64,000 bases of DNA from an uncultured Candidatus Saccharibacteria bacterium (GCA_964617735.1 CAZTXT010000001.1:532776-596775); one strand, 5' to 3'; positions 32,570 through 53,129 are shown, counted from the first letter of the stretch. Notes: a model not told the origin generated them from the letters alone. Numbers and translations are program-made.

Positions 32570-33080
32570 GAACTACATAATAGCATAAGGGCCGTCCCGA
32601 CGTACGTCGGGACGGCCCGTTCTCTGCTTGGATTATCGCCGAGCTCCATGTGCTCAAACTGACCCGGCACCGATTCATTCCCAGAACGCGCTTTGCATGG
32701 AAGGAAACGCGACACTATGATTGCTAAAGAGGTTCGGAGGACGGCGTTGCCGTTTCCGCTTGAAATTGTGCAGGTAAACCTCGTACGGAGAGAGGGATCC
32801 GAACTTGAGTTTCGAATCGAACACGCGCTGTTTCTTTATTCGGTCAAGTCTCGCGTCAATGAGGTCAAGCTCAGTGTAATGCTTTATAAGGAACGTGATC
32901 CTCGATGTGTCTGTATGCCTTTTCGGGGGCATGAATTTCCAGAATTCCTGGAGAACAAAAGCCGATAACGGCTCGAATGAGGGTATACTCATATCTCCCT
33001 CAAGTATACCGGACCGATCGGACTGTGCCAAAAATAACCGGCTTGCTATACTAACGGATGAATACGCTAACGCCAAAACG

Positions 33081-33983
33081 GTGAACCGAAAGAGTTTGTT
33101 CCTATTTATAGCGCTAGGTGTCATACTGATGATCACATACGCGGTGTTCATCGGAGGCGGACGCTTGGTAGTGCTCAATCCGCAGGGAACCATCAGTCTT
33201 GAAGAGCGCAATCTTATCGCAACGGCGGTGCTCTTGATGCTTACCATCGTCATACCCGCTCTGGTGATGACCTTCTATTTCGCGTGGAGATACCGTGCGG
33301 GCAATACGAAAGAGATATATGCGCCGGATTGGTCGGGGAATCCGCGCATCCAGCTTATCTGGTGGGTCGTGCCAGCTGCGGTCATTTCCATCCTCGCTCT
33401 GATCACCTGGCGTGGCACTCACGCCCTCGACCCATACAAACCCATCGCTTCCGATGAAAAGCCACTGACCATACAAGTCGTTGCCCTTCGTTGGAAATGG
33501 CTTTTTATTTACCCTGACCTCAATATCGCGACGGTAAACACTCTTGAGCTTCCCGTCGGCACGCCGCTTAATTTTGAGCTTACGGCTGATGCGCCCATGA
33601 GTTCTTTCTGGATACCAGCGTTGGGCGGCCAGATGTATGCGATGGCAGGTATGACAACGCAGCTTCATCTCTTAGCCAATGCACCGGGAACATTCAAAGG
33701 CTCCAATGCCGAGATCAGTGGCGCTGGATTTTCAAGTATGACGTTTCCGGTAAAGGCGCTGTCGCGCGATGATTTCAATGTTTGGGTCTTGACTGCACGC
33801 GCATCGGGACGAGTGCTCAACGCAGATGAATACGCAACCGTGGCGAAACCGAGCGAGAATGCGCCGATACAGTATTATTCTTCCGTCCAAGACGACCTGT
33901 ATACTATGATAATGATGAGCTATATGATGCCGATGCCGGAGATGACCGGAAGCACAGAACCAACAGCGGATAGCCATTATTGA
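33081..33983 (+). CDS. cyoA: cytochrome bo3 ubiquinol oxidase subunit II
   Basis: Close to the E. coli CyoA pattern (WKWLFIYPD, IPALGGQMYAMAGMTTQLHLLANAPGTF). CuA Cys ligands are absent, as expected for quinol oxidases. GTG start inferred. Confidence 0.8.
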   Translation: MNRKSLFLFIALGVILMITYAVFIGGGRLVVLNPQGTISLEERNLIATAVLLMLTIVIPALVMTFYFAWRYRAGNTKEIYAPDWSGNPRIQLIWWVVPAAVISILALITWRGTHALDPYKPIASDEKPLTIQVVALRWKWLFIYPDLNIATVNTLELPVGTPLNFELTADAPMSSFWIPALGGQMYAMAGMTTQLHLLANAPGTFKGSNAEISGAGFSSMTFPVKALSRDDFNVWVLTARASGRVLNADEYATVAKPSENAPIQYYSSVQDDLYTMIMMSYMMPMPEMTGSTEPTADSHY

Positions 33984-34002
33984 ATATGATGCGTGCACAC
34001 AC

Positions 34003-35979
34003 ATGAACATTCTCTTTGGAAAACTCACTCCCGCGGCGCTTCCCCACGAATGGTTCACGATCGGCGGAACCATCGCGATGGCCGCCACCGGTCTCTGCAT
34101 CGCCTTCCTTTTGACCTATTACAAGCGGTGGAAATGGCTTTGGAGCGAATGGTTGACCTCAACCGACCCTAAGAGGATCGGTATCATGTACATGGTGGTC
34201 GCCTCGGCGATGTTCGTGCGCGGCGCACTCGATGCCGTGATGATCTGGCTCCAACAATCTCTCGCCTCCGGCTCATCGCACGGCTACCTCTCGGCAGACC
34301 ATTTTCAGCAGATATTCACCGCGCACGGCAATATCATGGTCTTCTTCGTTACGATGGGATTCCTCTTCGGATTGATGAACCTGATACTGCCGCTTCAGAT
34401 CGGTGCTCGCGACCTCGCATTCCCCTTCCTTAATTCTTTGAGCTTCTGGCTCTACGTCGCTGGCGCGCTCCTCATCAATATGTTCTTCGTCGCGGGAGGC
34501 GAATTTGCCGCAACGGGGTGGCTCGCGGTTGCTCCGCTCTCGGGCATCCAATACAGCCCGGGGGTCGGGGTGGATTATTGGATATGGAGCCTGCAGGTCT
34601 CCGGACTCGGAACATTGTTAGGCGGCATCAATTTTTTGGTTACTATCATTAAAATGCGGGCGCCCGGCATGACGCTGATGAAAATGCCTCTCTTCACATG
34701 GACATCGCTGTGCAGCATGGTCCTTATCGTCTCGGTCTTCCCTATTCTCGCCGCCACGATCGCGCTCCTCTTCCTCGATCGGTTCTTTGGCTTGCATTTC
34801 TTCACCTCAAGCTTTGGCGGGAACCCCATGATGTACATCAATCTCATCTGGTCATGGGGACATCCGGAAGTCTATATTCTCATCCTTCCTGCGTTCGGAG
34901 TTTTCAGCGAGGTAGTCTCTACGTTCTCGCAGAAACGCCTCTTCGGCTACACCTCGATGGTCGCCGCCGCGATCGGCATCACGCTTCTCTCTCTCCTGGT
35001 CTGGCTGCACCACTTCTTTACGATGGGAGCTGGCGCTGACGTCAACGCGTTCTTCGGCATCATGACCATGTTCATTTCAGTACCTACCGGCCTCCAGGTC
35101 TTCAACTGGATCTGTACGATGTACAGAGGCAAGATCGTCTTTTCGACCCCGATGTACTGGTTCCTCGGTTTCGTCGGCACCTTCACGTTCGGCGGCATGG
35201 CGGGAGTCCTCATGGCAATCCCTCCGGCCGATTTCCAACTGCATAACAGTTTATTCCTCGTCGCCCACTTCCACACGATGATCATCGGAGGCGCGCTCTT
35301 CGGAATATTCGCCGGCTTTACCTATTGGTTCCCCAAAGTCATGGGGTTTCGGCTCAATGAACGCCTCGGTAAATATGCCTTTTGGTGTTGGCTCGTCGGC
35401 TTCTTCGTATCATTCGTCCCCCTCTATATTTTGGGGCTGATGGGCGCGACCCGCCGCCTCGACCACTACGATGCCTCGACAGGCTGGCAACCCCTTTTTA
35501 TGATCGCACTCCTCGGCTCTCTGATCATCACCGTTGGGGTTATCTTCCAGTTGGTCCAAATCATCGTGAGCATCAAACAGCGGAAACTGAATACCGATAC
35601 GACGGGCGATCCATGGAATGGGCGGACGCTTGAATGGTCAACCGCATCCCCCGCACCAGCTTACAATTTTGCATTGATACCACGCGTGGAGAGCCGCGAT
35701 GCATTTTGGGAAATGAAAAAAGGCAAGAAACCGCGACTCTCGGGCGCTGATTTTAAGGACATCCTGATGCCCAAAAACACTCCGATCGGCATTTATATCG
35801 CAGGATTCGTATTTCTCTTCGGCTTCGCGGCCGTCTGGCATATCATTTGGCTTATGATCGCAGGTATCATCGGGGCGATCGCCTGCGCCGTGATCCGCAT
35901 GTTCGACGAGGAAACCGAATACACTATCCCCGCGAGCGAGATCGCGAAAATAGAAGCCCAAAGAACTGTTCATGGATAA
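34003..35979 (+). CDS. cyoB: cytochrome bo3 ubiquinol oxidase subunit I
   Basis: 658 aa heme-copper oxidase subunit I with conserved His ligands (HPEVYILILPAFG, HHFFTMG). Confidence 0.9.
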   Translation: MNILFGKLTPAALPHEWFTIGGTIAMAATGLCIAFLLTYYKRWKWLWSEWLTSTDPKRIGIMYMVVASAMFVRGALDAVMIWLQQSLASGSSHGYLSADHFQQIFTAHGNIMVFFVTMGFLFGLMNLILPLQIGARDLAFPFLNSLSFWLYVAGALLINMFFVAGGEFAATGWLAVAPLSGIQYSPGVGVDYWIWSLQVSGLGTLLGGINFLVTIIKMRAPGMTLMKMPLFTWTSLCSMVLIVSVFPILAATIALLFLDRFFGLHFFTSSFGGNPMMYINLIWSWGHPEVYILILPAFGVFSEVVSTFSQKRLFGYTSMVAAAIGITLLSLLVWLHHFFTMGAGADVNAFFGIMTMFISVPTGLQVFNWICTMYRGKIVFSTPMYWFLGFVGTFTFGGMAGVLMAIPPADFQLHNSLFLVAHFHTMIIGGALFGIFAGFTYWFPKVMGFRLNERLGKYAFWCWLVGFFVSFVPLYILGLMGATRRLDHYDASTGWQPLFMIALLGSLIITVGVIFQLVQIIVSIKQRKLNTDTTGDPWNGRTLEWSTASPAPAYNFALIPRVESRDAFWEMKKGKKPRLSGADFKDILMPKNTPIGIYIAGFVFLFGFAAVWHIIWLMIAGIIGAIACAVIRMFDEETEYTIPASEIAKIEAQRTVHG

Positions 35980-36541
35980 GTACGACCAGGGCGAAAAAAA
36001 TATCTTCGGTTTCTGGGTCTATCTGATGACCGACCTCTTAATGTTCGGCGTGCTGTTCGCGGCGTACGCGGTTCTGCGCACGAATACCTTCGGCGGTCCG
36101 GGAGGTCGTGATCTCTTCAATCTTCCATTTGCGCTCACCGAAACGCTCATACTCCTGACGTCGAGCTTCACCTGCGGCCTCTCTATGCTTGCTGCGCGTG
36201 AGCATCGGATGAGCGGGGTGGTCACGTGGCTTGGCACTACGTTCATTTTGGGAATCACCTTCCTCGTCCTGGAACTGAAAGAATTCTCGCACCTCGTAAG
36301 CGACGGAAACGGACCGCAGCACAGCGCTTTTCTGTCCTCATTCTTCACGCTCGTGGGAACGCACGGCTTGCACATCACCTTCGGCCTCTTGTTCATCACA
36401 ATACTGCTTGTCCAAGCATCACGACAAGGTCTCACCGAAGCGATGGTGAATCGGCTCGCACGCATGAGCATGTTCTGGCATTTTCTCGATGTCGTATGGA
36501 TATTCATATTTACCATCGTTTACCTTTCAGCCTTCGTTTAG
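35972..36541 (+). CDS. cyoC: cytochrome bo3 ubiquinol oxidase subunit III
   Basis: IFGFWVYLMTDLLMFGVLFAAYAVL matches the CyoC N-terminus. Five TM helices. Confidence 0.85.
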   Translation: MDKYDQGEKNIFGFWVYLMTDLLMFGVLFAAYAVLRTNTFGGPGGRDLFNLPFALTETLILLTSSFTCGLSMLAAREHRMSGVVTWLGTTFILGITFLVLELKEFSHLVSDGNGPQHSAFLSSFFTLVGTHGLHITFGLLFITILLVQASRQGLTEAMVNRLARMSMFWHFLDVVWIFIFTIVYLSAFV

Positions 36542-36555
36542 TACCGATCAAGAAC

Positions 36556-36915
36556 ATGGAGACACCGAAAGAAAACCAGAAACTCACGCTATCCTATATC
36601 ATAGGGTTCATCGCTTCCCTTGTGCTGACACTGGTCGCGTATTTTCTGGTCGCTGGTCATCGGTTCGAGGGCGGCGTATTACTATCAGCGATCCTTGGCC
36701 TGGCGATAATCCAGCTTTTGGTGCAGCTGATCTGTTTCCTACATATCGGACACGAGACCGGACCTCGATGGAACCTCGCCGCGCTCATCTCCACCCTCTC
36801 CGTCATTGGTATCGTCGTGGTCGGGTCGCTGTGGATCATGGCGCATCTCAACTACAACATGACACCAACGGAGGTTGATTCGTACGTGATGCACCAGGAA
36901 GGAATGCAGAAATAA
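36556..36915 (+). CDS. cyoD: cytochrome bo3 ubiquinol oxidase subunit IV
   Basis: 119 aa with three TM helices. Sits between cyoC and cyoE. Confidence 0.75.
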   Translation: METPKENQKLTLSYIIGFIASLVLTLVAYFLVAGHRFEGGVLLSAILGLAIIQLLVQLICFLHIGHETGPRWNLAALISTLSVIGIVVVGSLWIMAHLNYNMTPTEVDSYVMHQEGMQK

Positions 36916-36988
36916 AAAAGCTCGCACCAGAGGTACGAGCAGTTAAACATGCATAGAGTGTCCTTTCTCCTAAAGTTGTTTAAGTCTT

Positions 36989-37396
36989 TTAGTCAGGAAT
37001 CTCGACAACGCTTCCGGCGCTTCGAAATGCTCGGCGCAAAAAGCGTTCTCTCTTCTCAGCTGCCACACGGGGCAAGAGGCCACGAACCTGATAGCATAAC
37101 CAAATGAGTTTGGCTCCACCCTCCCTTTTCTTGAAGTGATGAGCCAATTTGATTATATCCTCGATGAGATCCGGAGACTCGCACAGAACTTTCCGTGCCA
37201 AGTCTTTGAACTCACTGATGGATGTGTGTCCTTGAATCAGAAACATCCGTTCTGATTTGTTGCCCTTCCGAGCAAGTTGTCTTGCAACATCTTCGCGCTC
37301 CTTTAACATTCGCGCTTGATCTGCTAACACCTGGCTCTTTTCTTCGTCCGTGATTAACCCGACTTTGTTCAATGCATCAGCTAATGAGGTAGACAT
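36989..37396 (-). CDS. hypothetical protein
   Basis: 135-aa ORF with no recognised motif. Confidence 0.35.
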   Translation of the reverse strand: MSTSLADALNKVGLITDEEKSQVLADQARMLKEREDVARQLARKGNKSERMFLIQGHTSISEFKDLARKVLCESPDLIEDIIKLAHHFKKREGGAKLIWLCYQVRGLLPRVAAEKRERFLRRAFRSAGSVVEIPD

Positions 37397-37525
37397 AAAC
37401 AGTATTTTTGGTGTTCTTTATCATGGATCCGCTAGCAGAAACTAGCTTCTCCAAATCCAATAGCACATTAACACAACATACGATGTATTGTCAACATCTC
37501 TAAAACGGCCTATTTCCTATATAAT

Positions 37526-38389
37526 TTGAGTACCAACGTGTTTAAAAACTATTACGCGCTGACGAAACCCGGCATCATCTACGGCAACCTCATTACCACG
37601 GCGACGGGGTTTTTGCTGGCATCCAAATGGAATGTAAATCTAGCACTACTTATCGCAACACTATCGGGTATCGCTCTCGTGATGGCATCGGGGTGCGTGT
37701 TCAACAACATCATAGACAGAGCCATCGACGCACGAATGGAGCGGACGAAAAGTCGCGGCCTAGTTACGGGAAAGATTTCAAAACAAAATGCGGTTATCTT
37801 CGCTCTCCTCCTTGGAATCGGCGGCCTCTTCATGCTCGGGAAATATACTAATCCCCTCTCGCTTGGCATCACCCTGGTTGGCGTCTTTGTCTATCTTGTT
37901 CTCTACACCATCGGCAAGCGCCGCTCCATGTACGGGCCCCTGATCGGAAGCATCGCGGGTGCAGTCCCGCCCGTGGTCGGCTACACTGCCGTAACCGCTC
38001 ATCTCGAGCTTGCGGCGATGATTCTATTTCTGATGCTCATTCTCTGGCAGATGCCGCATTTCTACGCGATCGCCATCTTCCGTAAGGAAGAATATGCCAT
38101 GGCAGGAATCCCGATACTCCCCATACAAAGAGGCATTCGGAGCACGAAGATCTTGATCGTGCTCTACATAATCGCCTTCGCGATCGTCTCGCTTTCCCTC
38201 ACCCTTTTGGGATCAAGCGGCCGCATCTACTTTTCGGTTGTCCTGGCGCTCAATATCGCATGGCTTTCTCTCTCCCTGTGGGGTTTCCGTGCAGCAGATG
38301 AAAAGCTCTGGGCTCGGAAGATGTTTTTCTTTTCGCTCTTTACCCTCCTTATAACCTTCATAGCGCTCGCGCTCGATGTGACACAATGA
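37526..38389 (+). CDS. cyoE: protoheme IX farnesyltransferase (heme O synthase)
   Basis: UbiA-family motifs (NxxxDxxxD: NNIIDRAIDARMERTKSRG). Confidence 0.85.
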   Translation: MSTNVFKNYYALTKPGIIYGNLITTATGFLLASKWNVNLALLIATLSGIALVMASGCVFNNIIDRAIDARMERTKSRGLVTGKISKQNAVIFALLLGIGGLFMLGKYTNPLSLGITLVGVFVYLVLYTIGKRRSMYGPLIGSIAGAVPPVVGYTAVTAHLELAAMILFLMLILWQMPHFYAIAIFRKEEYAMAGIPILPIQRGIRSTKILIVLYIIAFAIVSLSLTLLGSSGRIYFSVVLALNIAWLSLSLWGFRAADEKLWARKMFFFSLFTLLITFIALALDVTQ

Positions 38390-41863: not shown

Positions 41864-41987
41864 GATATTGATTATTTTATATAACTCGATCTTACTTAGA
41901 ATAGCTGAGTTGATCATGAAGAACAACTACGTTTTGCTGAAAGTAAGGAGCCAGTTTTATTTCAAGTGTCCAGAGTTTGCGAGATAT

Positions 41988-42323
41988 TTAAGCTAGTCCA
42001 GACTCAACTTCAGCGTGACAATTCTTACATAAAAGAATACATTTTCTCGCCTCATCTTCTAGACTTTTCCATGAATAGCTCAAGCCCTTAACGCTAAGAG
42101 AAAAGGTCTTTGAACTCCGTTTGGTGTGATGGAAATCAAGCGCTCCGGCATACTTACTATATCCGCAACGCGAACACTTACCCCCGAATAGACTTACCAA
42201 CTTCTCCTTTTTTCTCCTGCGATTCTCAATAACCCAAATTGATGCGCATTTATTGCATCGAATTCCACCATCCGTGCGTCTGAAATGTGGAGTGAGACCG
42301 TGGATTTTGCACACTCTCATCAT
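41988..42323 (-). CDS. small HNH endonuclease
   Basis: Cys4 zinc knuckle plus an HNH core (CSRCG...DFHH...NCHAE). Start could be the ATG at 42323/42320 or the GTG at 42338. Confidence 0.7.
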   Translation of the reverse strand: MMRVCKIHGLTPHFRRTDGGIRCNKCASIWVIENRRRKKEKLVSLFGGKCSRCGYSKYAGALDFHHTKRSSKTFSLSVKGLSYSWKSLEDEARKCILLCKNCHAEVESGLA

Positions 42324-42329
42324 GAATAA

Positions 42330-42350
42330 GTATAACACCTCGTGTTATAC
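42330..42350. promoter_or_regulatory. perfect 9-bp inverted repeat GTATAACAC-CTC-GTGTTATAC at HNH gene start
   Basis: Palindrome located 7 nt upstream of the HNH ATG. A candidate operator or RBS-sequestering hairpin. Confidence 0.4.
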
Positions 42351-42697
42351 CGGCCAACTCTTGTATGAATCAAATTCAGTTACATTAACTATATCAACTG
42401 AGCTCCCCGGATACACCTTACTTCGAACTTTCCATACCGGAAATGCAGATCGCAGCAACAGAAATCTACAACTTCTTTAAAAGCCTTCCCCGCCCCGACA
42501 CCGAGTATTTCTTTTTGCGTCGTAACTGAGCATACTCCCGGCTCAACCTGAGAAGAAGGAGGGTAACCTTGTCGTCGGAGGTAGAAGAAAACTTTCTGCG
42601 GTTAAAAATGCGAGACCTTGACCATATGCATTAGGCATGCTAATGTCCAGCGCGGCTCGGGGAATTCACCCCACCAGTTCAAAAGGAGAACATCCGC

Positions 42698-42982
42698 ATG
42701 AAATTCCAACTGATGGGTCTGGTTCAGTTCAATGAATCGGGCCCGCCCTCTGAACGAATGGAAGTTCGTACTATAAATGAAGTATTCCGGGTTCGTCCTT
42801 CCCCAAAGGCCCAACTCATGGGAGCCCGGAGGGCTCACAAAATCCTGCAGGAGTATCACCGGCGTTTTCATAAAAAACGCAATTACAGTCTCCACGCGCA
42901 GTTCTTCAGACTGAATCTGTACGCCACAGCCAGATCAGAAATGAGGAGCGGCAAGTCGTGCCTAGATTGGTTGAGCTCATAA
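42698..42982 (+). CDS. small basic protein (94 aa), unknown function
   Basis: AAAGGAGAA Shine-Dalgarno 7 nt before the ATG, and an intrinsic terminator right after the stop. Confidence 0.4.
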   Translation: MKFQLMGLVQFNESGPPSERMEVRTINEVFRVRPSPKAQLMGARRAHKILQEYHRRFHKKRNYSLHAQFFRLNLYATARSEMRSGKSCLDWLSS

Positions 42983-42994
42983 GCAACCAACCCA

Positions 42995-43030
42995 AGCTCC
43001 CGGCAATTGCATGCCGGGAGCTTTTTTATT
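42995..43030 (+). terminator. rho-independent terminator
   Basis: AGCTCCCGGCA-ATTGCA-TGCCGGGAGCT followed by TTTTTTATTT. Confidence 0.7.
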
Positions 43031-43167
43031 TCCGACATTGCTAACCCCAGACCAGGGTGTTACTGGCCGATAAACGCCTTTTGGCAAGCTTTGGCTCAAA
43101 CCCACAGCATGAAGCCGAAGAGTGTAAACGCGGTTGCAAAAACTTCTCAATTGCTTACTATCAAACA

Positions 43168-43788
43168 ATGTGGCGAAAATACCAGAAGCTCATTCTGTTT
43201 GGAATTGCTCTCGCGGTTTGCATTTTCTTAGTCATTCGCCTCACCATATTTTTTGCACCTCCAATTCCAGAACCACTCAAGGACACGACCGCGGCCAAAA
43301 TCGATACTGCTGACTGGCAGACCTGTCGTAACGAGAAGGCAGGCTACGAGTTCCGTTACCCGAAAGATTGGTTCGTATACGGAGAAGGAGCACAGTCAAC
43401 CGGAGACTTTAGTCTTATCGCCACGACAACATGTACTGGCTTCTACGTTTGGGTACTCGATCAACCTCCTCCCATATCTGAATTTCCGACTGTAGGCGTT
43501 AACATTGCAGATGAGAGCGAAGAATATGTCCATTCCCTTCACAACGTTCCCGGGGGTCCAGGAGTCACTAACGAGAGTATACTTAAAGCCTACGCTAGAA
43601 CTACCGCCGGAGCTAGAAGCGGCAGTTGGGTGACCATCGACCATAGCCGGTTTCTCGCGTATCCTGCTCGAGGATCAACCGAGTACTCTACGATTCTCGC
43701 CGGTAGGCTCTACTCGATTTTCCCGTTTCCCGAGTTGGACCCGCAGCTATTCAAGGCGATTCTTTCCACTTTCAAGTTCTTGCGATGA
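43168..43788 (+). CDS. membrane-anchored hypothetical protein
   Basis: N-terminal TM helix followed by a roughly 170-aa extracytoplasmic domain. Confidence 0.4.
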   Translation: MWRKYQKLILFGIALAVCIFLVIRLTIFFAPPIPEPLKDTTAAKIDTADWQTCRNEKAGYEFRYPKDWFVYGEGAQSTGDFSLIATTTCTGFYVWVLDQPPPISEFPTVGVNIADESEEYVHSLHNVPGGPGVTNESILKAYARTTAGARSGSWVTIDHSRFLAYPARGSTEYSTILAGRLYSIFPFPELDPQLFKAILSTFKFLR

Positions 43789-43798
43789 TCTCTAATTG

Positions 43799-44053
43799 CT
43801 ATCGGACGCTACGCCAGAGTGGCTGGTTATCTTGGCCGTCCACGGGTGATGGGTCCGCTCCCTGCGGGCCCAGCCACCCATACGGATCGACTCGTTGATT
43901 TCCCTTTTTCACCGTAAAGTGTAGATGATAGTTTACACCCTCAGGACTATTGTAGTAATTCCCACAGTAACCAAGGTGCTGACCTTGCGTAACTGTTGAG
44001 CCATTAGTCAGCCAAAGACGTCCGCAGACCGGATAGTTAGTGTTCTGCCCAGA
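43799..44053 (-). pseudogene. remnant of peptidase M23 C-terminal domain
   Basis: Minus-strand frame reads ...LTNGSTVTQGQHLGYCGNYYNSPEGVNYHLHFTVKKGNQRVDPYGWLG..., matching the M23 GxxVxxGQxIGxxGxTG...HLHFEV...VDP pattern. Has no start codon and begins right after a stop. Confidence 0.5.
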
Positions 44054-44246
44054 CTATCAGCCCAAGCATATCTCCACTTTTTAGTCAGGCTGTAATACTC
44101 TTGACATAGATTATAGGCGTGATATAATCAATAAAGATGGAGGGCATTGTACTAAGTAGAGAAACCTCGGTTGGCAGACAGAACGCCACGTGCATGGTGT
44201 ACGCGGAGTTCTGCACTGCCAATCAGCCAACGAAAGGAATTCAACT

Positions 44247-44687
44247 ATGCTTAGTTCCCAATCATTAGCGCTACTGACCCCGAACTCAAATGACAGTCAG
44301 GGAGAAGTTGCGTGGAAGCGCCTCTTCTTACTCACGCTCCCTCGTTTGTCGCTGGACGAACGGCGTCAATTTGGTGAGCTCGTCTCCTCTGTCTGCAGGG
44401 AAGAAGCCCGCCGTCAGTTGGAGAGTCATGTGAGTTTTTCGCATGTAAGTAAGATTTGCGAACTTCACCATCAGCAGCAACAGGCCTGTTGCCGATTCAT
44501 CAAGGATCTGCTGCGAAACGGTATGCGGCGCCACCCCGAGTTCTTCAGGTCTTACCAAGAAACCTTCCAACGGCTTTGCGCCGAGGTTTACGTTGAGCCG
44601 CCATCCGAACAGGAGATAGGTGACGAAGCTGTTAAGGAATTCGAACGGCTCTGCGGTGGGTCACCGTCGCACACAATGAGGTCATAA
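44247..44687 (+). CDS. hypothetical protein
   Basis: Roughly 146 aa with no motif recognised. Followed by a terminator. Confidence 0.35.
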   Translation: MLSSQSLALLTPNSNDSQGEVAWKRLFLLTLPRLSLDERRQFGELVSSVCREEARRQLESHVSFSHVSKICELHHQQQQACCRFIKDLLRNGMRRHPEFFRSYQETFQRLCAEVYVEPPSEQEIGDEAVKEFERLCGGSPSHTMRS

Positions 44688-44723
44688 GTGCGGGTCGAAG
44701 TTTTTGGGTCAGTCGCGCGACAA

Positions 44724-44750
44724 GGGGTGCCCACGGGCACCCCTTTTTTC
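44724..44750 (+). terminator. rho-independent terminator
   Basis: GGGGTGCC-CACG-GGCACCCC followed by TTTTTT. Confidence 0.7.
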
Positions 44751-44832
44751 TATGTTAGGCAAGTATCGGCCCGTCAAGGCGAGGAAGAGCTTGCAGTAAG
44801 TGGCTGGGTGAAGAATGAATTGGCTCGCCCAG

Positions 44833-45372
44833 CTATAATGTCTTACAGTTTTGCTGTTCACCTCCAAGCGTCGGGGATATCTCATCCAGAAAATTGTACG
44901 AATTGTCGTCAGAAAATCCTAGCGACCTGAGTCGAGCTCGATACCCCTGAATTTCTTTATTTTGATACGTGATACAAAGATAATACGCAAATTGAGCATC
45001 AAAAAGCCCATACGAAACCATGCCAGCCCTGCTCATTGTCCAAATATCAGAGAGGAGGTTGAGGTAGTCATCGATTACATAATCGTCGAACCTTCCTCCA
45101 TTGGCAATTAGTAACGTGCCCCTGTCGTATAGATACTGTTCCTCGATTGCCTTACTTACCTCCCGATACTTAGGATTATCGAAAAACGTGCGATCGTAGT
45201 CATAAATAAACTGACGTTGAGCAACACGTTGATCAATGAGCTTGCCCGCATAAAACGAGAACGCGGTGCTAATAACGCTCGATATCAGAATGGAAATTAA
45301 GATTTCTCGAGCAATAGATGCCCGCTCATGTGACCAATACCTCTCGAACTGCTTCAAAAACATAGTCTCCAA
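44833..45372 (-). CDS. hypothetical membrane protein in AT-rich patch
   Basis: N-terminal TM helix plus a soluble domain. Local base composition is visibly more AT-rich than surrounding genes. Confidence 0.4.
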   Translation of the reverse strand: METMFLKQFERYWSHERASIAREILISILISSVISTAFSFYAGKLIDQRVAQRQFIYDYDRTFFDNPKYREVSKAIEEQYLYDRGTLLIANGGRFDDYVIDDYLNLLSDIWTMSRAGMVSYGLFDAQFAYYLCITYQNKEIQGYRARLRSLGFSDDNSYNFLDEISPTLGGEQQNCKTL

Positions 45373-45506
45373 AAGAGTGCTTACTTTCCAACGCGCTGGA
45401 GAGTTTTCATCCTGCCATCATCACCTTAATGACATAATGTTGCCTATATCTAGCCCTAGTAATCCACAGGGCCTTGCTTTATGGAGGCAATTCGGCTAGA
45501 ATTTAC

Positions 45507-46112
45507 TTACGTTACCTCGCCGGGCTTTGCGCCCGGTTTTTCCGTTTTTGGATCGACCCTTTGTGGAGAGCGCTCGATTTCGGACCTAATCGAATCCAGA
45601 CTGACAAACCATGAAGCTGTCCGGATTTCCCAGGCACAATTGTTCTCGTAAGCCAGAAACTTTATATGCTTCTGCCTCTTTAGTACGTTGTCTTTAGTTC
45701 GAATGAAATCGCTGTCGCCACTCACAAGATAAACGATATCGATATCTTCAAGATCAGCCATTATCTCGTCATGCATCTCAACATCAAAGTTGCACTTATT
45801 TCGGAACCCTAACGGCGATGAGGGGTCCCGGAGCCTCTTTAAATCTTTAGCGGTAACTGTATATCCTATTCTTTTAAAGTACTTTTCCAGAGCTTCACTG
45901 ATGGTTTTGGCAGGTTCATATCGGGGTCTACCCTTGTATATTCGTGCATGGACAATGGTATTTAGCTGAGCGACCCATTTGTAGAGCTTTTTGTAATCGG
46001 TCATCCATCCCGTCGCCTTACCCCGCTTGTACAAATTAGCGTCATCAACATACAGGCCTACTTTAGGCTTTGCTGGAAGTTTTATGGGGAGTGGTTGCTC
46101 CGAAGCGGACAC
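45507..46112 (-). CDS. NYN-domain (LabA/PIN-like) protein
   Basis: VGLYVDDANLY...DIDIVYLVSGDSDF matches the NYN/LabA nuclease-fold signature. Confidence 0.6.
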   Translation of the reverse strand: MSASEQPLPIKLPAKPKVGLYVDDANLYKRGKATGWMTDYKKLYKWVAQLNTIVHARIYKGRPRYEPAKTISEALEKYFKRIGYTVTAKDLKRLRDPSSPLGFRNKCNFDVEMHDEIMADLEDIDIVYLVSGDSDFIRTKDNVLKRQKHIKFLAYENNCAWEIRTASWFVSLDSIRSEIERSPQRVDPKTEKPGAKPGEVT

Positions 46113-46243
46113 ACCTCAAGTTTAACATATAGCTAATAGAGAGCACCAAGGGACAGCTGGCAAGCCTTTGCCTCACCCGGCAAATTGTCCCGTCTTTTGC
46201 GCTTTTGCGCTCCGACTACACTAACCAATTAGGAAAGTGACTT

Positions 46244-46432
46244 ATGAGCCGCAGCGCTTTCCTGTCGGACTCGTCCTCCGGCCGCGGACATGCTACTCCC
46301 TTGTACCCCGAACCAAAGCACGTGCTGGCCGAGCGAATCAGTCAACGGTTACGACTGATTTCCGATCAGCTTACGTCTCTTGAAGAGATCCTCCTCGACA
46401 TCGAGGATATGTTGGATCCCTTCATGAGATAG
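46244..46432 (+). CDS. small acidic hypothetical protein (62 aa)
   Basis: AGGAAAG about 7 nt before the ATG. No motif recognised. Confidence 0.25.
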   Translation: MSRSAFLSDSSSGRGHATPLYPEPKHVLAERISQRLRLISDQLTSLEEILLDIEDMLDPFMR

Positions 46433-46498
46433 TTCTATGGTTCGATTATCCTGCTCCTGGTCAGCAGAACTCGTTGTTACTATGGTATATCCTCTGAA

Positions 46499-46786
46499 CT
46501 CCGGGAGCAGGATTCGAACCTGCGACCAATCGCTTACACGTTATCCATTGTTACCAATGGCGTGGACTATATCACCGCCTTAGCAAATAAGCTTTAGGCG
46601 CCCCGGTATCTAGTCTCTACGGCGCCCCCGATTCGAAAATCAGGGTTCCCACGGTATTGCCCGATCCTACATTGCTTTACAATTGGATTTTGGGTTCCAC
46701 CGTTATCCCGGAGTTTTTCAATCCACCTTTCAGTGGAAAGCTGCAATTCCTTACAGGCGACTGCTCTACCGCTGAGCTATCCCGGA
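46499..46786 (-). tRNA. tRNA-Asn(GUU) interrupted by a group I intron (exon 1 46753-46786, exon 2 46499-46536)
   Basis: Exons join to UCCGGGAUAGCUCAGCGGUAGAGCAGUCGCCUGUUAAGCGAUUGGUCGCAGGUUCGAAUCCUGCUCCCGGAG. Cloverleaf has a 7-bp acceptor stem (U1-A72, G73), a GCUC/GAGC D stem, anticodon loop CUGUUAA, and a T-loop UUCGAAU. CCA is not encoded. Confidence 0.75.
46537..46752 (-). ncRNA. group I self-splicing intron (IC3-like, no ORF) in tRNA anticodon loop
   Basis: Contains the R-like GUAGAGACUAGA and S-like GAUAUAGUCC core elements. GCAG near the 5' end can pair with exon CUGU (U.G at the splice site), and the intron ends in G. Confidence 0.75.
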
Positions 46787-48759: not shown

Positions 48760-49170
48760 ATGAAAATCTGTTCTTTGTTAGCTGTTTTGTTGAGCGCATT
48801 AGTAGTATGCAGCTGTAGCACAATCCCTCCCCTAGAATTGGGAAAACTCCCTCGAGATTCAGTAACGATACAAAACTCGACCCGATATCATCTTCATGTG
48901 TACCGAAACGGCGACCCTTGGGTGGTTCCCTACTACGAGGGTACACGCTATAAGCTACCGATCGTAGTCAATCCATGGCAAGTGGTCACGCTATCAAACT
49001 GCACCGCTGCGCGTTTCGGCTCGAGCGTACGCATGGGCCTGCAAGCATTCAGGGTTGGACATGTCGGGTGCGTGGTGTTTGACCAGAAGATCGGACAGAC
49101 CGAAAAGCTGCTGCAGCTGGGCACCAACGCCCCGGCGCATATAGTACGGGTTATGCGAAGGGATTTTTGA
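48760..49170 (+). CDS. small lipoprotein
   Basis: MKICSLLAVLLSALVVCSCS lipobox-like signal. 136 aa. Confidence 0.45.
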   Translation: MKICSLLAVLLSALVVCSCSTIPPLELGKLPRDSVTIQNSTRYHLHVYRNGDPWVVPYYEGTRYKLPIVVNPWQVVTLSNCTAARFGSSVRMGLQAFRVGHVGCVVFDQKIGQTEKLLQLGTNAPAHIVRVMRRDF

Positions 49171-49295: not shown

Positions 49296-52200
49296 ATGCA
49301 TATACGCCGCGCTTCAGTGTTAGTTTTTTTAGGCATTCTCTCGCTCTTGAGCCTGTCAGCGCTCTTCTTCCTTCTACCTTCCGCTCCCGCACAAGCCGCA
49401 TGCGGCCATACTACCGAGTTTATTCCCTACCCAGACCCAAATGGCCCGGCGTACCTACCCAAAATCGGCTGGTTCGAACCGATCGGAAAATACTACAGTC
49501 CCTTCACCTATACCAATAACCTGCAGACGCCGACGATCCTCCCCCCGCCGGCGAATGGTTCGATGTGGGTCTATTACGATGACTGCGAGAGCTCTCCAAG
49601 CACTTCAACGATCAGCATCGGGGGAACCGATATACGCTGGACTGAAGCCAATACCTCCGGCACGCAATCATACGAGCCTCTGGCAAGCGTGCCGGTCGGC
49701 GGGTTTGGACCTAATCAACCCTACAACAACACCTGCGACCCCAGCAGATATTACTGTTACTGCCATATCTTAGGGAGTATAGCGTGTGTCTTGCAAGAAG
49801 GGTATTCGACCATCGGCTACTCAAATTATAGCGCCGACGGAGACATTCCTGCGGGAGAGCGGCAGACAAATAAGGGCTGGATCACTTCGGTACAAGATAT
49901 AAACCATTCTCTCGCAAGCCTCGTGGGTACCTCGACCCTAGAAGAAGATCAGTGGCTTGATAAGATTTCCCAGGAGAATACCGTGGGAGTCAGGGTGGAT
50001 ACTCCCGGCATCGGCTCCCACGTTTTTGACGTTCCATATACGAATTGCCTCATTGATGACGGAGTGAGCTTTCGAGCTCCCTATCCCGCCGAAATCAACG
50101 ACAAAACAAAAAACAAAGTGGTGTTCGTGCGCGGCAAGAGCGATTCAAATATCAATTATTTTATCACCAATGTTAATAAGGCAATCCAGGACGGTTTCTA
50201 TTCCGTTGACCCATTCAAGACGTATAAAGACAATTTTTCTTTCTATGTTGACCTCGATAAAATAGATGACTCGAACGTGCCCCTTGAAACCGTTTTCTTA
50301 AATGGGACTACTACGAGCTTCTTTCAACCCATTTTTGACACTGTGGTGCGGCTCACTTCAAGCTGCAGCGGGCTGCACGGCGGCACAGGAGATTCCTTTT
50401 ATATCTTCTATGTCGACCAACGCACTAGACCCCAATTATACCCAGGGTACTCTCGCACGGTTGCATATATTGATGATTCTCTCACAGACCTTACTCTAAC
50501 GACGTTGCACGAGTTTGGACATCAATTCGCTTCTCTCAACGATGAATACGAGAAATCAGTATATGGTGTTTTACCCGGAAGTTTCTTCGGGACATCGATT
50601 TTTGCGGAAAACTGTACCTCATTCCCCCGAACTAAATACAGAAATTCTTCAAACAACAAAGTGTACGGTTCACTTCAAAATACAGGGTGTGCATACATCA
50701 GTAATCTACCGGCCCCTAAACCCGATCCGCAGTATTACTTTAGACCCTCCATTGACAGCATTATGCGTTCTACGAGTCCCGCAGGAAGAAAATTCAATAT
50801 CATTGATTGCGGCTACATTATGGCAGCGATGTTTGGAGAGCCACACACCAAAGCTAATGCGGAGAAGTACTGGCCAGCGGTGGCTAAATCGCCCATAGGA
50901 AACATCAAAGGATGCGCGGCAATGGATGTGGATAGCGATGGCGTTCCTCCCCCAAACCTGTCAACTCCTGCATTCACCACTCCTTCCTCTTCGTCTGCAG
51001 CTCCCGGCCAATCGCTTACGGTGACTGGCTCTAACTTCACCCCAACTGACAATGCCGCCCATTTCACGAACATCGACAGCGGGCAGACCCAAGGGATAAG
51101 CATTGCTGACCCGAACTGGAACCTGACCGGTCATTGGGGCTTGGCCTTTGGATATCTGTTCGGAAACGGTGCCGCGGACTCATACCCGGCAAATGATACT
51201 GCAACCGCCACGGCACCGACGCTTAACCTGCTCGCTCACAATGCGGCGCGGCAAGCTACCCTACACTTCACCTCAAGCTGTTCCACTGAAACTTCCGACC
51301 CTGCAACCGGAAATTCCGACTACCTCGCGCTCGAGTGGAGCGGCGACGGTCTGCACTGGGGTCAAACCGCGCGGTGGAACACGTTCACTGACGGCTCTGC
51401 GCCCTCGGTGCATAATCTGCCTATCCCCTCTGCGCTCATAACTTCGAGCTTCGCCTTCCGTTTCCGGTGGGTCACGAATGCAACAGACAATAATCACAAC
51501 GGCTGCGGGATCAAGGATATATCGGTCACTGCTCCCGAACTCTCTTATGAAGTACTCGGCATCCCATCGCCGGATGGCACACACCTCACCTTTAAAATCC
51601 CGACCACGACACCTGATGGCGCAACGACTACCCCCGACGGATTCTCTGCCGTGCCCGTAGCCGGGCAGTATAAGCTCAAGCTCGGCGCATTCAATTCCGA
51701 CTGGTCAAATTCTCTACCGTTCACGATTCTGGGAGGAACCCCGCCGCCCGTACTCAACGCTCTGACTCCTTCTACCAGCGCGGCAGGAAATGCAGTGGAA
51801 CTAGAGGGTCGAAACCTGAAGTCGGGAACGTACGTCACCCTCTCCCGAGCAGGCATTCCGGCACTCACACTAACCGGCGAAAGCCACGCAGGCGGCAAGT
51901 ATTTCGATATCACCCTACCCGCCACTCTTGTAAGCGGAATCTATCAGCTCACCGCGACCAACGGAGGAGTGGCGAGCAACGCCCTTACCCTCACCGTAGT
52001 CGGTCCCCCCACCATCACGCTCTCGGCTTCTCAACTCGCCATTGCTGTAGGACAATCCGTTACGGTTTCGTGGAGCACGACAGACGCCACTACCTGTCAG
52101 GCGACGGTCAATGGCTCCAGCAGCGCGATCGCCCTGTCGGGTACTGCTGTGCTGACGCCGACGACTACCCTCTCCATCTCGCTCACCTGCACCGGTATCG

Positions 52201-53129
52201 GCGGCAGCAACAACAGAAGCATCACCATTACCGTAGTACCACCGCCGACGATCACTCTCTCGGCTACCCCCATCCCGGTCCTTTTGGGTGGAACTGCGAC
52301 AATCTCATGGAGCAGCACTAATGCGACGGGCTGCGCGGCAGCGGGAGCCTGGAGCGGCGCGCTTCCTCCCTCCGGCGCCACCTCCACTGCACAAATCAAC
52401 ACTCCGACCACCCGCACCTACACGCTCACCTGCACCGGAGTGGGTGGTACTACTACCCAGAGCTTTGCCCTACCGGTCGTCTCGCTCACTGCAGTGAGTA
52501 CCGACCAGGGTAGCTACCACGTCGGCAATCCGATGGATATCAACTGGAGAAGCACGAACCTCGCCTCCCCCATCGCCCTCTACCTCTTCGATTACAAAGA
52601 CCTGCACCTGGTGCTTCCCATCGCCTCGAACCTCCCCAACAGCGGCTCGTACACCTGGACCATCTCTGACGCGGTTGATACTGCAAACGACACCATCTAT
52701 CGCATCCGCGTTACCAGCTCCGCCCCGCTCCTCTACACCCAGACTAGCCCGGTGGAGATCCTCCCCGCCCTCCCTTCGATCACCCTCTTAGCGTCGCTCA
52801 AAACCATCGACATCGGCAAGTCCACGACGCTTGACTGGACTACGACACACGCTCTTTCCTGCCAGGGCACCACCGACCGCGGCGACCTGCCCGGCTGGAG
52901 TACTCCAGGACTCTCGGGATCTTTTACCTACACCGCAACTGCCCAAACCGGCCCCAGCATCACCTTCACGCTCACCTGCACGGGAGATGGGGGAACGGCA
53001 AGCCAGTCGGTACAGATTACGGTCAATGCAAGCCCCGCCCGAAACCATTCACCATTGAGCTTCCTCGCCGCACTCGTAGCGGCAGTACAGCGGGTGCTTG
53101 AGGGACTGACGGGCTCACTGTCGCGGTAA
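49296..53129 (+). CDS. giant secreted HExxH zinc metallopeptidase-like protein (M64-like motif) with IPT/TIG domain and three tandem Ig-like repeats
   Basis: Signal peptide; HEFGHQFASLNDEY near residue 400; IPT-like VLNALTPSTSAAGNAVELEGRNL; three repeats of about 95 aa each carrying T(L/V)SWS...C...TYTLTCTGxGG. Confidence 0.6.
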   Translation: MHIRRASVLVFLGILSLLSLSALFFLLPSAPAQAACGHTTEFIPYPDPNGPAYLPKIGWFEPIGKYYSPFTYTNNLQTPTILPPPANGSMWVYYDDCESSPSTSTISIGGTDIRWTEANTSGTQSYEPLASVPVGGFGPNQPYNNTCDPSRYYCYCHILGSIACVLQEGYSTIGYSNYSADGDIPAGERQTNKGWITSVQDINHSLASLVGTSTLEEDQWLDKISQENTVGVRVDTPGIGSHVFDVPYTNCLIDDGVSFRAPYPAEINDKTKNKVVFVRGKSDSNINYFITNVNKAIQDGFYSVDPFKTYKDNFSFYVDLDKIDDSNVPLETVFLNGTTTSFFQPIFDTVVRLTSSCSGLHGGTGDSFYIFYVDQRTRPQLYPGYSRTVAYIDDSLTDLTLTTLHEFGHQFASLNDEYEKSVYGVLPGSFFGTSIFAENCTSFPRTKYRNSSNNKVYGSLQNTGCAYISNLPAPKPDPQYYFRPSIDSIMRSTSPAGRKFNIIDCGYIMAAMFGEPHTKANAEKYWPAVAKSPIGNIKGCAAMDVDSDGVPPPNLSTPAFTTPSSSSAAPGQSLTVTGSNFTPTDNAAHFTNIDSGQTQGISIADPNWNLTGHWGLAFGYLFGNGAADSYPANDTATATAPTLNLLAHNAARQATLHFTSSCSTETSDPATGNSDYLALEWSGDGLHWGQTARWNTFTDGSAPSVHNLPIPSALITSSFAFRFRWVTNATDNNHNGCGIKDISVTAPELSYEVLGIPSPDGTHLTFKIPTTTPDGATTTPDGFSAVPVAGQYKLKLGAFNSDWSNSLPFTILGGTPPPVLNALTPSTSAAGNAVELEGRNLKSGTYVTLSRAGIPALTLTGESHAGGKYFDITLPATLVSGIYQLTATNGGVASNALTLTVVGPPTITLSASQLAIAVGQSVTVSWSTTDATTCQATVNGSSSAIALSGTAVLTPTTTLSISLTCTGIGGSNNRSITITVVPPPTITLSATPIPVLLGGTATISWSSTNATGCAAAGAWSGALPPSGATSTAQINTPTTRTYTLTCTGVGGTTTQSFALPVVSLTAVSTDQGSYHVGNPMDINWRSTNLASPIALYLFDYKDLHLVLPIASNLPNSGSYTWTISDAVDTANDTIYRIRVTSSAPLLYTQTSPVEILPALPSITLLASLKTIDIGKSTTLDWTTTHALSCQGTTDRGDLPGWSTPGLSGSFTYTATAQTGPSITFTLTCTGDGGTASQSVQITVNASPARNHSPLSFLAALVAAVQRVLEGLTGSLSR

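Follow-up and report, generated by a model that had tools for sequence, protein, structure and literature searches.

The DNA abutting the 3' end of an intron-containing tRNA gene in a small Patescibacteria genome (~675 kb) raises the question of whether a ~4.5-kb block of unfamiliar genes arrived there as one element, works as one system, or was assembled from unrelated pieces. The original prediction, made from the sequence of the 64-kb stretch of DNA that contains the block (hereafter, the window), regarded it as accessory DNA. Nearly all of the features that it listed are present (Table 1), and the accessory reading survives to the extent that the block is atypical, is gene-poor, and harbors a pseudogene, a phage-type HNH gene, and two orphans; its further proposals of insertion at the tRNA and of a single module do not. 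The block is probably a hypervariable, gene-poor patch in which six or more transcription units, independent of one another and unlike in history, lie together, rather than one element or system. Its content fits accessory or variable DNA and suggests that the locus differs between strains.

Table 1. Features of the block and its right-hand boundary (positions counted from the first nucleotide of the window).
Feature	Position	Strand	Details
HNH endonuclease gene, free-standing, phage-type	41988..42338	-	116 aa, pI 9.75; PHROG match
Basic 94-aa ORF, orf94 (P0121)	42698..42982	+	pI 10.9; annotated in NCBI and Logan
Intrinsic terminator ending the orf94 transcription unit	42994..43023	+	12-bp stem with 8 GC pairs, then T-run
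Orphan membrane-anchored protein P0122	43168..43788 (best model)	+	206 aa; TM helix at residues 9-27
M23 peptidase pseudogene, C-terminal half	43799..44053	-	84 codons; Pfam PF01551, E = 3.2e-6
orf146 cassette (sigma70 promoter, leader, ORF, terminator)	44101..44745	+	Self-contained
Divergent membrane protein P0123, putatively of the DUF4760 family	44833..45363	-	176 aa, GC 0.43
NYN/LabA-type PIN-like nuclease (PF01936)	45507..46112	-	Pfam, 54.3 bits versus cutoff of 24.2
Terminator-like hairpin inside the NYN coding sequence	45519..45537	+	By-product of codons
Acidic 62-aa ORF	46244..46432	+	pI 5.1; absent from protein collection
Inverted, imperfect copy of the T-arm and acceptor strand (tRNA 3' end)	46439..46461	+	Repeat scan
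tRNA-Asn(GUU) with group I intron; right-hand block boundary	46500..46786	-	RF00028 and in-silico splicing

The compositional anomaly of the block is beyond chance, and windowed statistics over the 64 kb confirm the atypical and uneven composition that had been predicted. The ten lowest-GC 2-kb intervals all lie within 40.5 to 48 kb (the lowest at 0.46 to 0.49 versus 0.52; z to -2.6), and the tetranucleotide deviation in the block reaches z = 2.8. The anomaly is patchy, with a host-like middle between two AT-rich patches. ORFs of ≥90 aa cover 0.61 to 0.66 of the block versus 0.84 ± 0.10, and the six strand switches that we counted bear out the repeated flips in orientation. Another sparse stretch occurs outside the block, at 23.5 to 27 kb, as do hypothetical genes with equally poor codon scores (48760-49170, 0.00; 36989-37396, 0.03). 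Composition is, however, weaker evidence than it appears, because the low GC stems partly from low coding density and partly from a family-wide AT bias of the NYN gene. The shift extends across 41.5 to 47.5 kb, taking in a VOC gene, the tRNA, and a regulator gene, and could thus also reflect a single larger acquisition. Intrinsic-terminator-like sites are not raised in total (8 in the region versus 6.8 ± 2.8 in shuffles), and only two long-stem sites stand out (42994-43023 and 44722-44745). Two of the three strong terminators originally proposed hold, whereas the third is accounted for by NYN codons: the site at 45519-45537 lies in the segment encoding the conserved NYN C-terminal tail KTEKPGAKPGEVT, its hairpin being the reverse complement of the PGAKPG codons and its T-run the complement of the KTEK codons.

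The leftmost gene of the block, anticipated as a small HNH nuclease, matches two PHROG families (E = 3e-24 for PHROG 2255 and 4e-20), while its Pfam matches are all below threshold. The profile match, the H-N-H core, and the zinc-binding cysteines (motifs CxxC...CxxC, as CNKC and CSRC; DFHH; and CKNCH) together identify it as an HNH endonuclease, with 38 relatives on viral contigs at 32 to 54% identity. Its GC3 (0.41) is the lowest and its fit to host codon usage (-0.17 bits/codon) the worst in the region, pointing to a foreign origin. It shares the family match, the zinc-ribbon cysteines, and the H-N-H core with the free-standing phage HNH homing endonucleases of PHROG 2255 and 3106, but it spans only positions 52 to 171 of the 211 in the profile, sits in the chromosome without neighboring phage genes, and lies outside the nearby group I intron, which itself contains no ORF. 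The adjacent basic ORF, orf94, is present and followed by a strong terminator as described; its status as a gene is doubtful, given a coding score of ~0 (-0.02) bits/codon versus +0.09 for an overlapping antisense ORF (42602-42895, 97 aa), and it has no match in any library searched.

Next comes P0122, the predicted membrane-anchored ORF, whose N-terminal TM helix is probably followed by an extracytoplasmic domain. It retrieves itself alone among 5.8 billion proteins and matches no family (PsbP_2 at E = 0.26 only). The fragment called as a decayed M23 peptidase is just that: it aligns to profile positions 46 to 96 of 96 only, lacks a start codon, and is immediately preceded by two stops; in this it differs from a started ORF with a complete M23 domain and its N-terminal HxxxD zinc motif. 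Beyond it lies orf146 (44247-44687, + strand; 146 aa, all-helical), which has not only the terminator foreseen for it (44722-44745; 10-bp stem) but also a perfect TTGACA-16-TATAAT promoter (44101-44128) and a leader of ~110 nt. An AF2 single-sequence model of its product was unusable (pLDDT 42). Its sole relative among the 5.8 billion proteins is P0124 (~95% amino acid identity), putatively a second copy located elsewhere in the same genome, outside the window. The M23 fragment stops at stop codons ~50 bp from the -35 box of the cassette, and the cassette begins where the M23 gene breaks off, which suggests that duplication or insertion of the cassette truncated that gene.

The run of genes had been described as orphans, which is correct for the 206-aa protein and orf146 and incorrect for the HNH, NYN, and 176-aa proteins, all of which have homologs. 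The last of these, P0123, is indeed a TM-helix protein in an AT-rich stretch, and it has 39 representative homologs at E < 1e-3 among 1.84e9 proteins. P0123 itself matches nothing in Pfam over threshold, but 20 of its 33 phmmer homologs match PF15956 (best E = 1.5e-14); its assignment to DUF4760 is therefore transitive, by way of those homologs. Like DUF4760 proteins, it is predicted to combine an N-terminal TM helix with a compact helical domain of ~130 aa; unlike them, it falls under every Pfam threshold. Its AF2 model (pLDDT 94.8) resembles no solved structure in the PDB and shares its fold with one viral protein (TM 0.65). DUF4760-like genes occur in variable neighborhoods with no fixed partner: the adjoining gene differs from locus to locus (DUF4145, MvaI/BcnI, HNH, RNase H, methyltransferase, SET, or PurD), EVE, DUF4145, and AAA_21 (AbiEii-like) genes are found nearby, and neither the NYN gene nor this HNH gene is present in any of 12 such loci.

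NYN/LabA-like PIN-domain nucleases (PF01936) have been classified previously (PMC5499597), and the nuclease fold predicted for the next gene is upheld by a domain score over the gathering cutoff together with conserved acidic residues. The residues invariant across 13 diverse homologs (D23, D110, E112, H114, D115, and D133-S-D135) indicate that its acidic active site is intact. We recovered 146 homologs, most of them (>100, across CPR bacteria) at 55 to 85% identity and the closest anywhere at ≤85%. Compared with other NYN/LabA nucleases, this CPR subfamily is unusually conserved and solitary, carries the conserved tail KTEKPGxxPGEVT, and consistently exceeds its hosts in AT content. This last property holds in 19 of 21 genomes, and the low GC of the gene here is thus a family trait, not evidence of local acquisition. 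Neighbors of its orthologs are mostly housekeeping genes (MiaA, MreB, GatB, ClpP, Obg, RuvC, YebC, RNase HII, PNPase, etc.), none of them a partner common to the loci, and a paralog sits between rpsO and pnp. No DUF4760-like, HNH-like, or other window gene appears in the 21 CPR NYN loci analyzed (29 fetched), and none of 23 genome loci shares any neighbor with the block. Most likely, the NYN protein is a resident RNA-processing or turnover enzyme rather than cargo.

The intron-containing tRNA inferred in the original prediction is confirmed as a tRNA-Asn(GUU) gene interrupted at anticodon-loop position 35/36 by a 216-nt group I intron (46537-46752). The intron matches RF00028 at 36.3 bits (E = 1.2e-7), under the gathering score of 50, and the unspliced gene is missed both by ARAGORN and by Rfam at the gathering threshold. 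When spliced in silico in the register CUGU/...G/UAA, it yields a 72-nt product that ARAGORN recognizes as tRNA-Asn(GUU); a P1 helix, CUGU/GCAG, can be read off the sequence. By this predicted splicing, it joins the tRNA-Asn/Asp genes of Patescibacteria in which group I introns interrupt position 35/36 (Nakagawa et al. 2026, PMC13011429), and from these, as far as they are described in that abstract, it differs in nothing essential: it is likewise invisible to standard tools, with an ORF-less intron of ~216 nt, an exon ending at U35, an intron ending in G, and a 72-nt spliced tRNA-Asn(GUU). One extra, not described in the abstract, is the inverted copy of the tRNA 3' end 40 nt past the gene, which in a transcript would pair with the tRNA's own 3' half (fold of -38.6 kcal/mol, z = -5.4). 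Also present near this boundary is the acidic 62-aa ORF listed by the prediction; its coding status is putative, and it has no match in the libraries searched.

We considered whether the block could be a decayed integrative island, once inserted at the tRNA-Asn 3' end, that later lost its integrase and far att repeat, by deletion or by mutation beyond recognition, and now consists of cargo remnants. This would account for several of its properties: like tRNA-associated genomic islands and integrative elements, the block adjoins a tRNA 3' end, is atypical in composition (with the lowest GC in the window), and holds orphan and phage-like genes, including the phage-type HNH, as well as a pseudogene, and the scrambled inverted copy of the tRNA end could be a recombination relic. 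We nonetheless consider this unlikely. No directly repeated tRNA 3' end, which the prediction had proposed to seek at the far boundary, is present in the 64 kb, in which the terminal 22-mer occurs once when up to 3 mismatches are allowed; a repeat scan returned only a 12-nt match at chance level and the above-mentioned copy, which is inverted, not direct. As the prediction had said of an integrase, recombinase domains are missing in Pfam searches of the block ORFs, and the same is true of the flanking ORFs scanned (32.9 to 39.7 kb, 46.9 to 49.2 kb, and 53.4 to 53.7 kb, a set that passes over the 1277-aa ORF at 49296-53129). Of the three hallmarks of tRNA islands considered here (integrase, direct repeat, and atypical composition), only the last is found, and it is patchy rather than uniform, with AT-rich patches flanking a host-like middle. 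Finally, the place beside the tRNA usually taken by an integrase is occupied by a gene of a conserved resident type, the CPR-wide NYN, which elsewhere has mostly housekeeping neighbors.

An ordinary, vertically inherited CPR chromosome, in which small hypothetical genes are normal and the GC dip merely sums intergenic DNA and an AT-rich NYN gene, is still less probable. The poorly scoring hypothetical genes and the second sparse stretch elsewhere in the window are in keeping with it, as is the AT richness of NYN genes relative to their hosts. It does not explain why an HNH gene with phage relatives has clearly foreign codon usage, why the truncation of the M23 gene and the putative duplication of the cassette record recent rearrangement, why searches of 5.8e9 proteins turned up no relative of two of the block's genes in other organisms, or why the ten lowest-GC intervals all cluster here.

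Very improbable is a novel toxin or antiphage module that unites the NYN and/or HNH nuclease, the DUF4760-like membrane protein, and small ORFs. In its favor are the codirectional arrangement of the NYN and DUF4760-like genes 143 bp apart, the frequent position of DUF4760-like genes elsewhere after a nuclease gene (HNH, MvaI/BcnI, or RNase H) and near EVE, DUF4145, and AbiEii-like genes, the existence of a PADLOC NYN model that matches weakly, and the occurrence of the P0123 fold in a viral protein. Its proposed components do not co-occur, however, which goes most of the way to refuting it: none of 21 NYN loci contains window genes, and none of 12 DUF4760-like loci contains an NYN gene. The upstream partners of DUF4760-like genes all differ and include housekeeping genes (RNase H and PurD), and the HNH gene belongs to another transcription unit 2.5 kb off, beyond a terminator and a pseudogene. 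Defense genes usually diverge quickly; the 55 to 85% identity and invariant residues of NYN across CPR bacteria better fit a conserved resident gene. In agreement with the earlier statement that no defense system could be named, PADLOC-DB 2.0 returned none, giving a weak generic NYN match (E = 7e-6), subsignificant HNH matches, and nothing for the other five ORFs. The narrower grouping of HNH, NYN, and small ORFs originally put forward as a candidate module finds no support in the same two sets of loci.

We favor the hypervariable patch of separate units. Their independence follows from the six strand switches, the promoter and terminator private to orf146, and the terminator of orf94; their different histories follow from the phage relatives of the HNH gene, the orphan status of P0122 and orf146, the additional orf146 copy, the break in the M23 gene, and the variable neighbors of the DUF4760-like and NYN genes. 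Under this explanation, the HNH gene would be a recent acquisition from a lower-GC source; the doubtful orf94 and the 206-aa protein would be lineage-restricted orphans; the M23 gene would have lost its 5' half when the orf146 cassette was duplicated or inserted; the DUF4760-like gene would belong to a type that elsewhere floats among variable neighborhoods where restriction, HNH, and Abi-type genes abound; and NYN would be a solitary, CPR-conserved resident, not cargo. The adjacency to the tRNA would be positional, not mechanistic, with each gene expressed from its own signals, and the patch may represent a site in this chromosome that tolerates insertions, duplications, and decay.

The block between the VOC genes and tRNA-Asn (41.9 to 46.5 kb) stands apart from the window (GC, 0.52) in both base composition and coding content. 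All ten of the lowest-GC 2-kb windows of the 64 kb lie at 40.5 to 48 kb (GC, 0.46 to 0.49 versus a mean of 0.521 and an SD of 0.023), tetranucleotide deviation reaches z = 2.8, and ORF coverage in the block is 0.61 to 0.66 versus 0.84 ± 0.10. Codon scores, in bits per codon from a model trained on the long genes of the window, range from -0.17 to +0.10 for the block ORFs and from 0.23 to 0.35 for the flanking enzymes; some hypothetical genes outside the block score as low as its ORFs. The compositional and coding anomaly of the block exceeds chance. The original prediction had described uneven composition here, and this was borne out by windowed GC and codon usage; all of the features it listed exist in the window (see the table).

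Features of the block and of other loci in the window
Feature	Position	Strand	Properties
Cytochrome bo-type terminal oxidase operon	32895-38389		COX2, COX1 (E = 4.6e-142), COX4_pro, UbiA/CyoE heme O synthase
HNH gene	41988-42338	-	Phage HNH families, E = 3e-24; Pfam models below threshold
Antisense 97-aa ORF	42602-42895	-	Overlaps orf94
Basic 94-aa ORF (orf94), annotated	42698-42982	+	pI 10.9; followed by 12-bp-stem terminator (42994-43023)
Membrane-anchored ORF (P0122)	43168-43788		206 aa; best gene model
M23 peptidase remnant	43799-44053	-	84 codons; no start codon; stops directly upstream
orf146	44247-44687		Perfect promoter TTGACA-16-TATAAT with TG extension (44101-44128); AAAGGAA ribosome-binding site; 10-bp-stem terminator (44722-44745)
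DUF4760-like membrane protein (P0123)	44833-45363		176 aa; AT-rich (GC, 0.43)
NYN/LabA-like nuclease gene (NYN)	45507-46112	-	54.3 bits versus cut-off of 24.2
Acidic 62-aa ORF			pI 5.1
Imperfect inverted copy of tRNA-Asn 3' end	46439-46461 (versus 46499-46520)	+	40 nt beyond the tRNA
Secreted or surface protein	49296-53129		1277 aa; translation repetitive, Thr/Ser/Pro-rich

Elsewhere in the window, the highest tetranucleotide deviation (0.39 to 0.41 versus a mean of 0.23) is covered by the 1277-aa secreted or surface protein, and a search of the sparse stretch at 23.5 to 27 kb recovered no RNAs. Respiratory oxidases are uncommon in Patescibacteria, and the terminal oxidase operon may therefore be an acquired oxygen-scavenging module.

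Within the block, the HNH gene has phage relatives at 32 to 54% identity and the most foreign codon usage, on which grounds it appears to be the sole clearly imported gene; a PDB sequence search with it gave only chance-level matches (best E = 0.039). The ORF antisense to orf94 has a higher codon score than orf94 itself (+0.09 versus -0.02) and a host-like GC3 (0.60), and neither matches any family. The only hit of a permissive Rfam scan of the block was a trpB motif at chance level (E = 0.74), so there is no evidence for a known RNA hidden in orf94. A search of 5.8 billion proteins with P0122 retrieved only itself, and the M23 remnant covers only positions 46 to 96 of a 96-position profile (E = 3.2e-6). 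No protein of the P0122, orf146, NYN, or DUF4760-like type was found by our scan of viral contigs. Terminator-like sites (8 in the block) are not above the 6.8 found in shuffles, and the only remarkable ones are the two long-stem sites, at 42994-43023 and 44722-44745. Of the three strong terminators claimed originally, these two stand; the third, at 45519-45537(+), falls within the last ten codons of NYN and is a by-product of coding, being the reverse complement of the tail KTEKPGAKPGEVT, which is conserved in many homologs.

The unit comprising orf146 with its promoter, leader, and terminator (the cassette, 44101-44745) shows probable duplication within one genome. Searching 5.8e9 proteins with orf146 recovered one relative, P0124, at ~95% amino acid identity, and none in other organisms; P0124 is absent from the proteins encoded by the window but is recorded on a contig equal in length (674,686 bp) to the one on which NYN, orf94, P0122, and P0123 are each recorded once, which indicates that the ~675-kb genome probably carries a further copy at another locus. 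The similarity of the two continues 5' of the ATG and across the leader up to the -10 box, at which point a TAG in the window corresponds to Gln in P0124. Since transcription from the perfect promoter would begin 3' of the annotated start of P0124, we infer that orf146 truly begins with the ATG at position 44247 and that its copy in the window is intact. The cassette starts ~50 bp from the break of the M23 reading frame, and its arrival would have truncated the peptidase gene. Modeled with AlphaFold from its sequence alone, orf146 gave no usable structure (pLDDT, 42).

NYN does not fit the description of the block as a run of orphan genes. At E ≤ 1e-3, 146 homologs were recovered; among the 120 matches listed, most are 55 to 85% identical, with a best match of no more than 85%, and the acidic residues of the active site do not vary among homologs. 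A PDB sequence search gave no match. The relatives belong to Patescibacteria/CPR, including Paceibacteria, Jorgensenbacteria, Campbellbacteria, and Yanofskybacteria, and the family shares a C-terminal tail, KTEKPGxxPGEVT. A 74%-identical CPR-type copy (L026, 10001-10560) on a 1.58-Mb contig labelled Saprospiraceae, Bacteroidota (CAVVAS010000005.1), with a GC content close to its surroundings, could represent either inter-phylum transfer or a mis-assigned contig. We surveyed the two nearest genes on each side of NYN in 21 CPR genomes and found MiaA, MreB, GatB, ClpP, Obg, BipA, RuvC, YebC, RNase HII, NDK, and PNPase, along with a few IS1595, GIY-YIG, and recombinase genes. No partner recurs across these genomes, none of their NYN loci holds genes of the 32- to 53-kb part of the window, and a genome-collection scan with NYN recovered no syntenic relative. 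Exact-protein matching of window genes and of P0001, P0123, and P0124 gave a single hit, L068, which is 100% identical to the window and thus uninformative. Adjacency to a tRNA was rejected as a conserved trait: some orthologs lie near tRNAs, and these tRNAs are all different. In Jorgensenbacteria GW2011_GWA1_48_11 (locus L001/L018, 13708-14244), a second NYN paralog is flanked by rpsO (S15) and pnp (PNPase), an arrangement classic of RNA-turnover operons that hints at a role for NYN in RNA turnover.

The low GC of NYN in the window is uninformative on local acquisition, since in 19 of the 21 genomes (L007-L027) its GC is lower than that of the locus around it (e.g., 0.35 versus 0.51). Hosts span a GC range of 0.30 to 0.53 at 55 to 85% family identity, a pattern that would be expected if the gene either is very strongly constrained or circulates horizontally; high identity over varied host GC, the variable context, and the Saprospiraceae-labelled copy together make horizontal spread possible. 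NYN is not an orphan and, on these comparisons, does not appear to be cargo.

For the neighboring P0123, HMMER, run exhaustively against 1.84 billion representatives, recovered 39 relatives, and 20 of 33 match DUF4760. An AlphaFold model built with the alignment of these relatives predicts a long transmembrane helix and a helical domain (pLDDT, 94.8); a PDB fold search with it found no solved relative (best E ~2), and one viral protein resembles it (TM, 0.65). The neighbor differs at each of twelve metagenomic DUF4760-like loci, which include DUF4145, MvaI/BcnI restriction enzyme, HNH, RNase H, methyltransferase, SET, and PurD genes, with EVE, AAA_21, and S24/HTH genes also nearby; neither NYN nor the HNH of the window occurs in the twelve. 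P0123 behaves as an accessory gene that floats freely among variable regions. On low-GC metagenome contigs of one lineage, the DUF4760-like gene overlaps a downstream purD by 4 nt (L073, L076), and the gene upstream varies (MvaI/BcnI restriction enzyme in L073, HNH in L075); the arrangement has the appearance of a hotspot at which selfish nuclease genes gather.

The tRNA that anchors the block was recovered neither by ARAGORN nor by Rfam at the gathering threshold. A permissive scan found a group I intron (36.3 bits; E = 1.2e-7), and in silico removal of 216 nt yields a 72-nt tRNA accepted by ARAGORN. Two registers are compatible with an exon ending in U and an intron ending in G; of the two, CUGU|intron|UAA adds a CUGU/GCAG P1 helix with a U-G wobble, fits the G73 discriminator, and gives a predicted tRNA-Asn(GUU) interrupted at position 35/36. 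Such a class of intron-bearing tRNAs is reported as typical of Patescibacteria by Nakagawa et al. 2026 (PMC13011429), so that, by their description, the anchor is a feature of a kind already known. We rejected the HNH gene as the homing endonuclease of this intron because the two lie 4 kb apart with several units between them and most introns of the class are described there (PMC13011429) as being without homing endonuclease genes. The inverted copy of the tRNA 3' end (GGTTCGA-TT-ATCCTGCTCCTGG) is predicted to pair in the transcript with the T-arm and acceptor strand of the tRNA (-38.6 kcal/mol; z = -5.4), a stability reached by none of 200 shuffles. The copy may be a scar of recombination, or it may influence how the transcript folds, is processed, or is spliced.

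We next weigh readings of the block as a whole. Insertion at the tRNA 3' end is not demonstrable: the 22-nt end, allowing ≤3 mismatches, occurs once in the 64 kb. A 12-nt direct repeat spanning the tRNA end (42108-42119/46492-46503) was rejected as an att remnant because roughly 40 to 50 such 11-of-12 pairs are the estimated chance expectation in a 6.5-kb region. As the original prediction stated, no integrase or transposase domain occurs among the ORFs scanned, which comprise those of the block and some on its flanks. The proposed toxin/defense module of HNH, NYN, and small ORFs is not supported, in that PADLOC gave only a weak generic NYN match and the partners never co-occur in the loci examined. 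It is very unlikely that either the cassette is a new small self-duplicating unit or NYN and the DUF4760-like gene form a two-gene module. In the first reading, the cassette would be present in at least two copies ~95% identical in a 675-kb reduced genome, and its insertion would have truncated the M23 gene; in the second, the co-directional pair would be a nuclease/membrane-protein module with an exchangeable nuclease (HNH, REase, RNase H, or NYN). A small residual chance attaches to either. What holds of the acquired, accessory reading is variable DNA with a foreign nuclease gene, not a run of orphans or a coherent HNH-NYN module, and we rate the block as a variable patch that is itself ordinary, although the genome is unusual.

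The practical value of this result is mainly negative, in that the block should not be advanced as a candidate defense system or tRNA-targeting island. The DUF4760-like subfamily now has a high-confidence structural model with no solved relative. CPR organisms are without many standard RNases, and the solitary NYN family, exceptionally well conserved throughout CPR (55 to 85% identity), is a plausible unstudied RNA-processing enzyme. Even a reduced Patescibacteria genome of ~675 kb retains a spot at which nuclease genes of foreign origin and duplicated cassettes collect alongside genes in decay.
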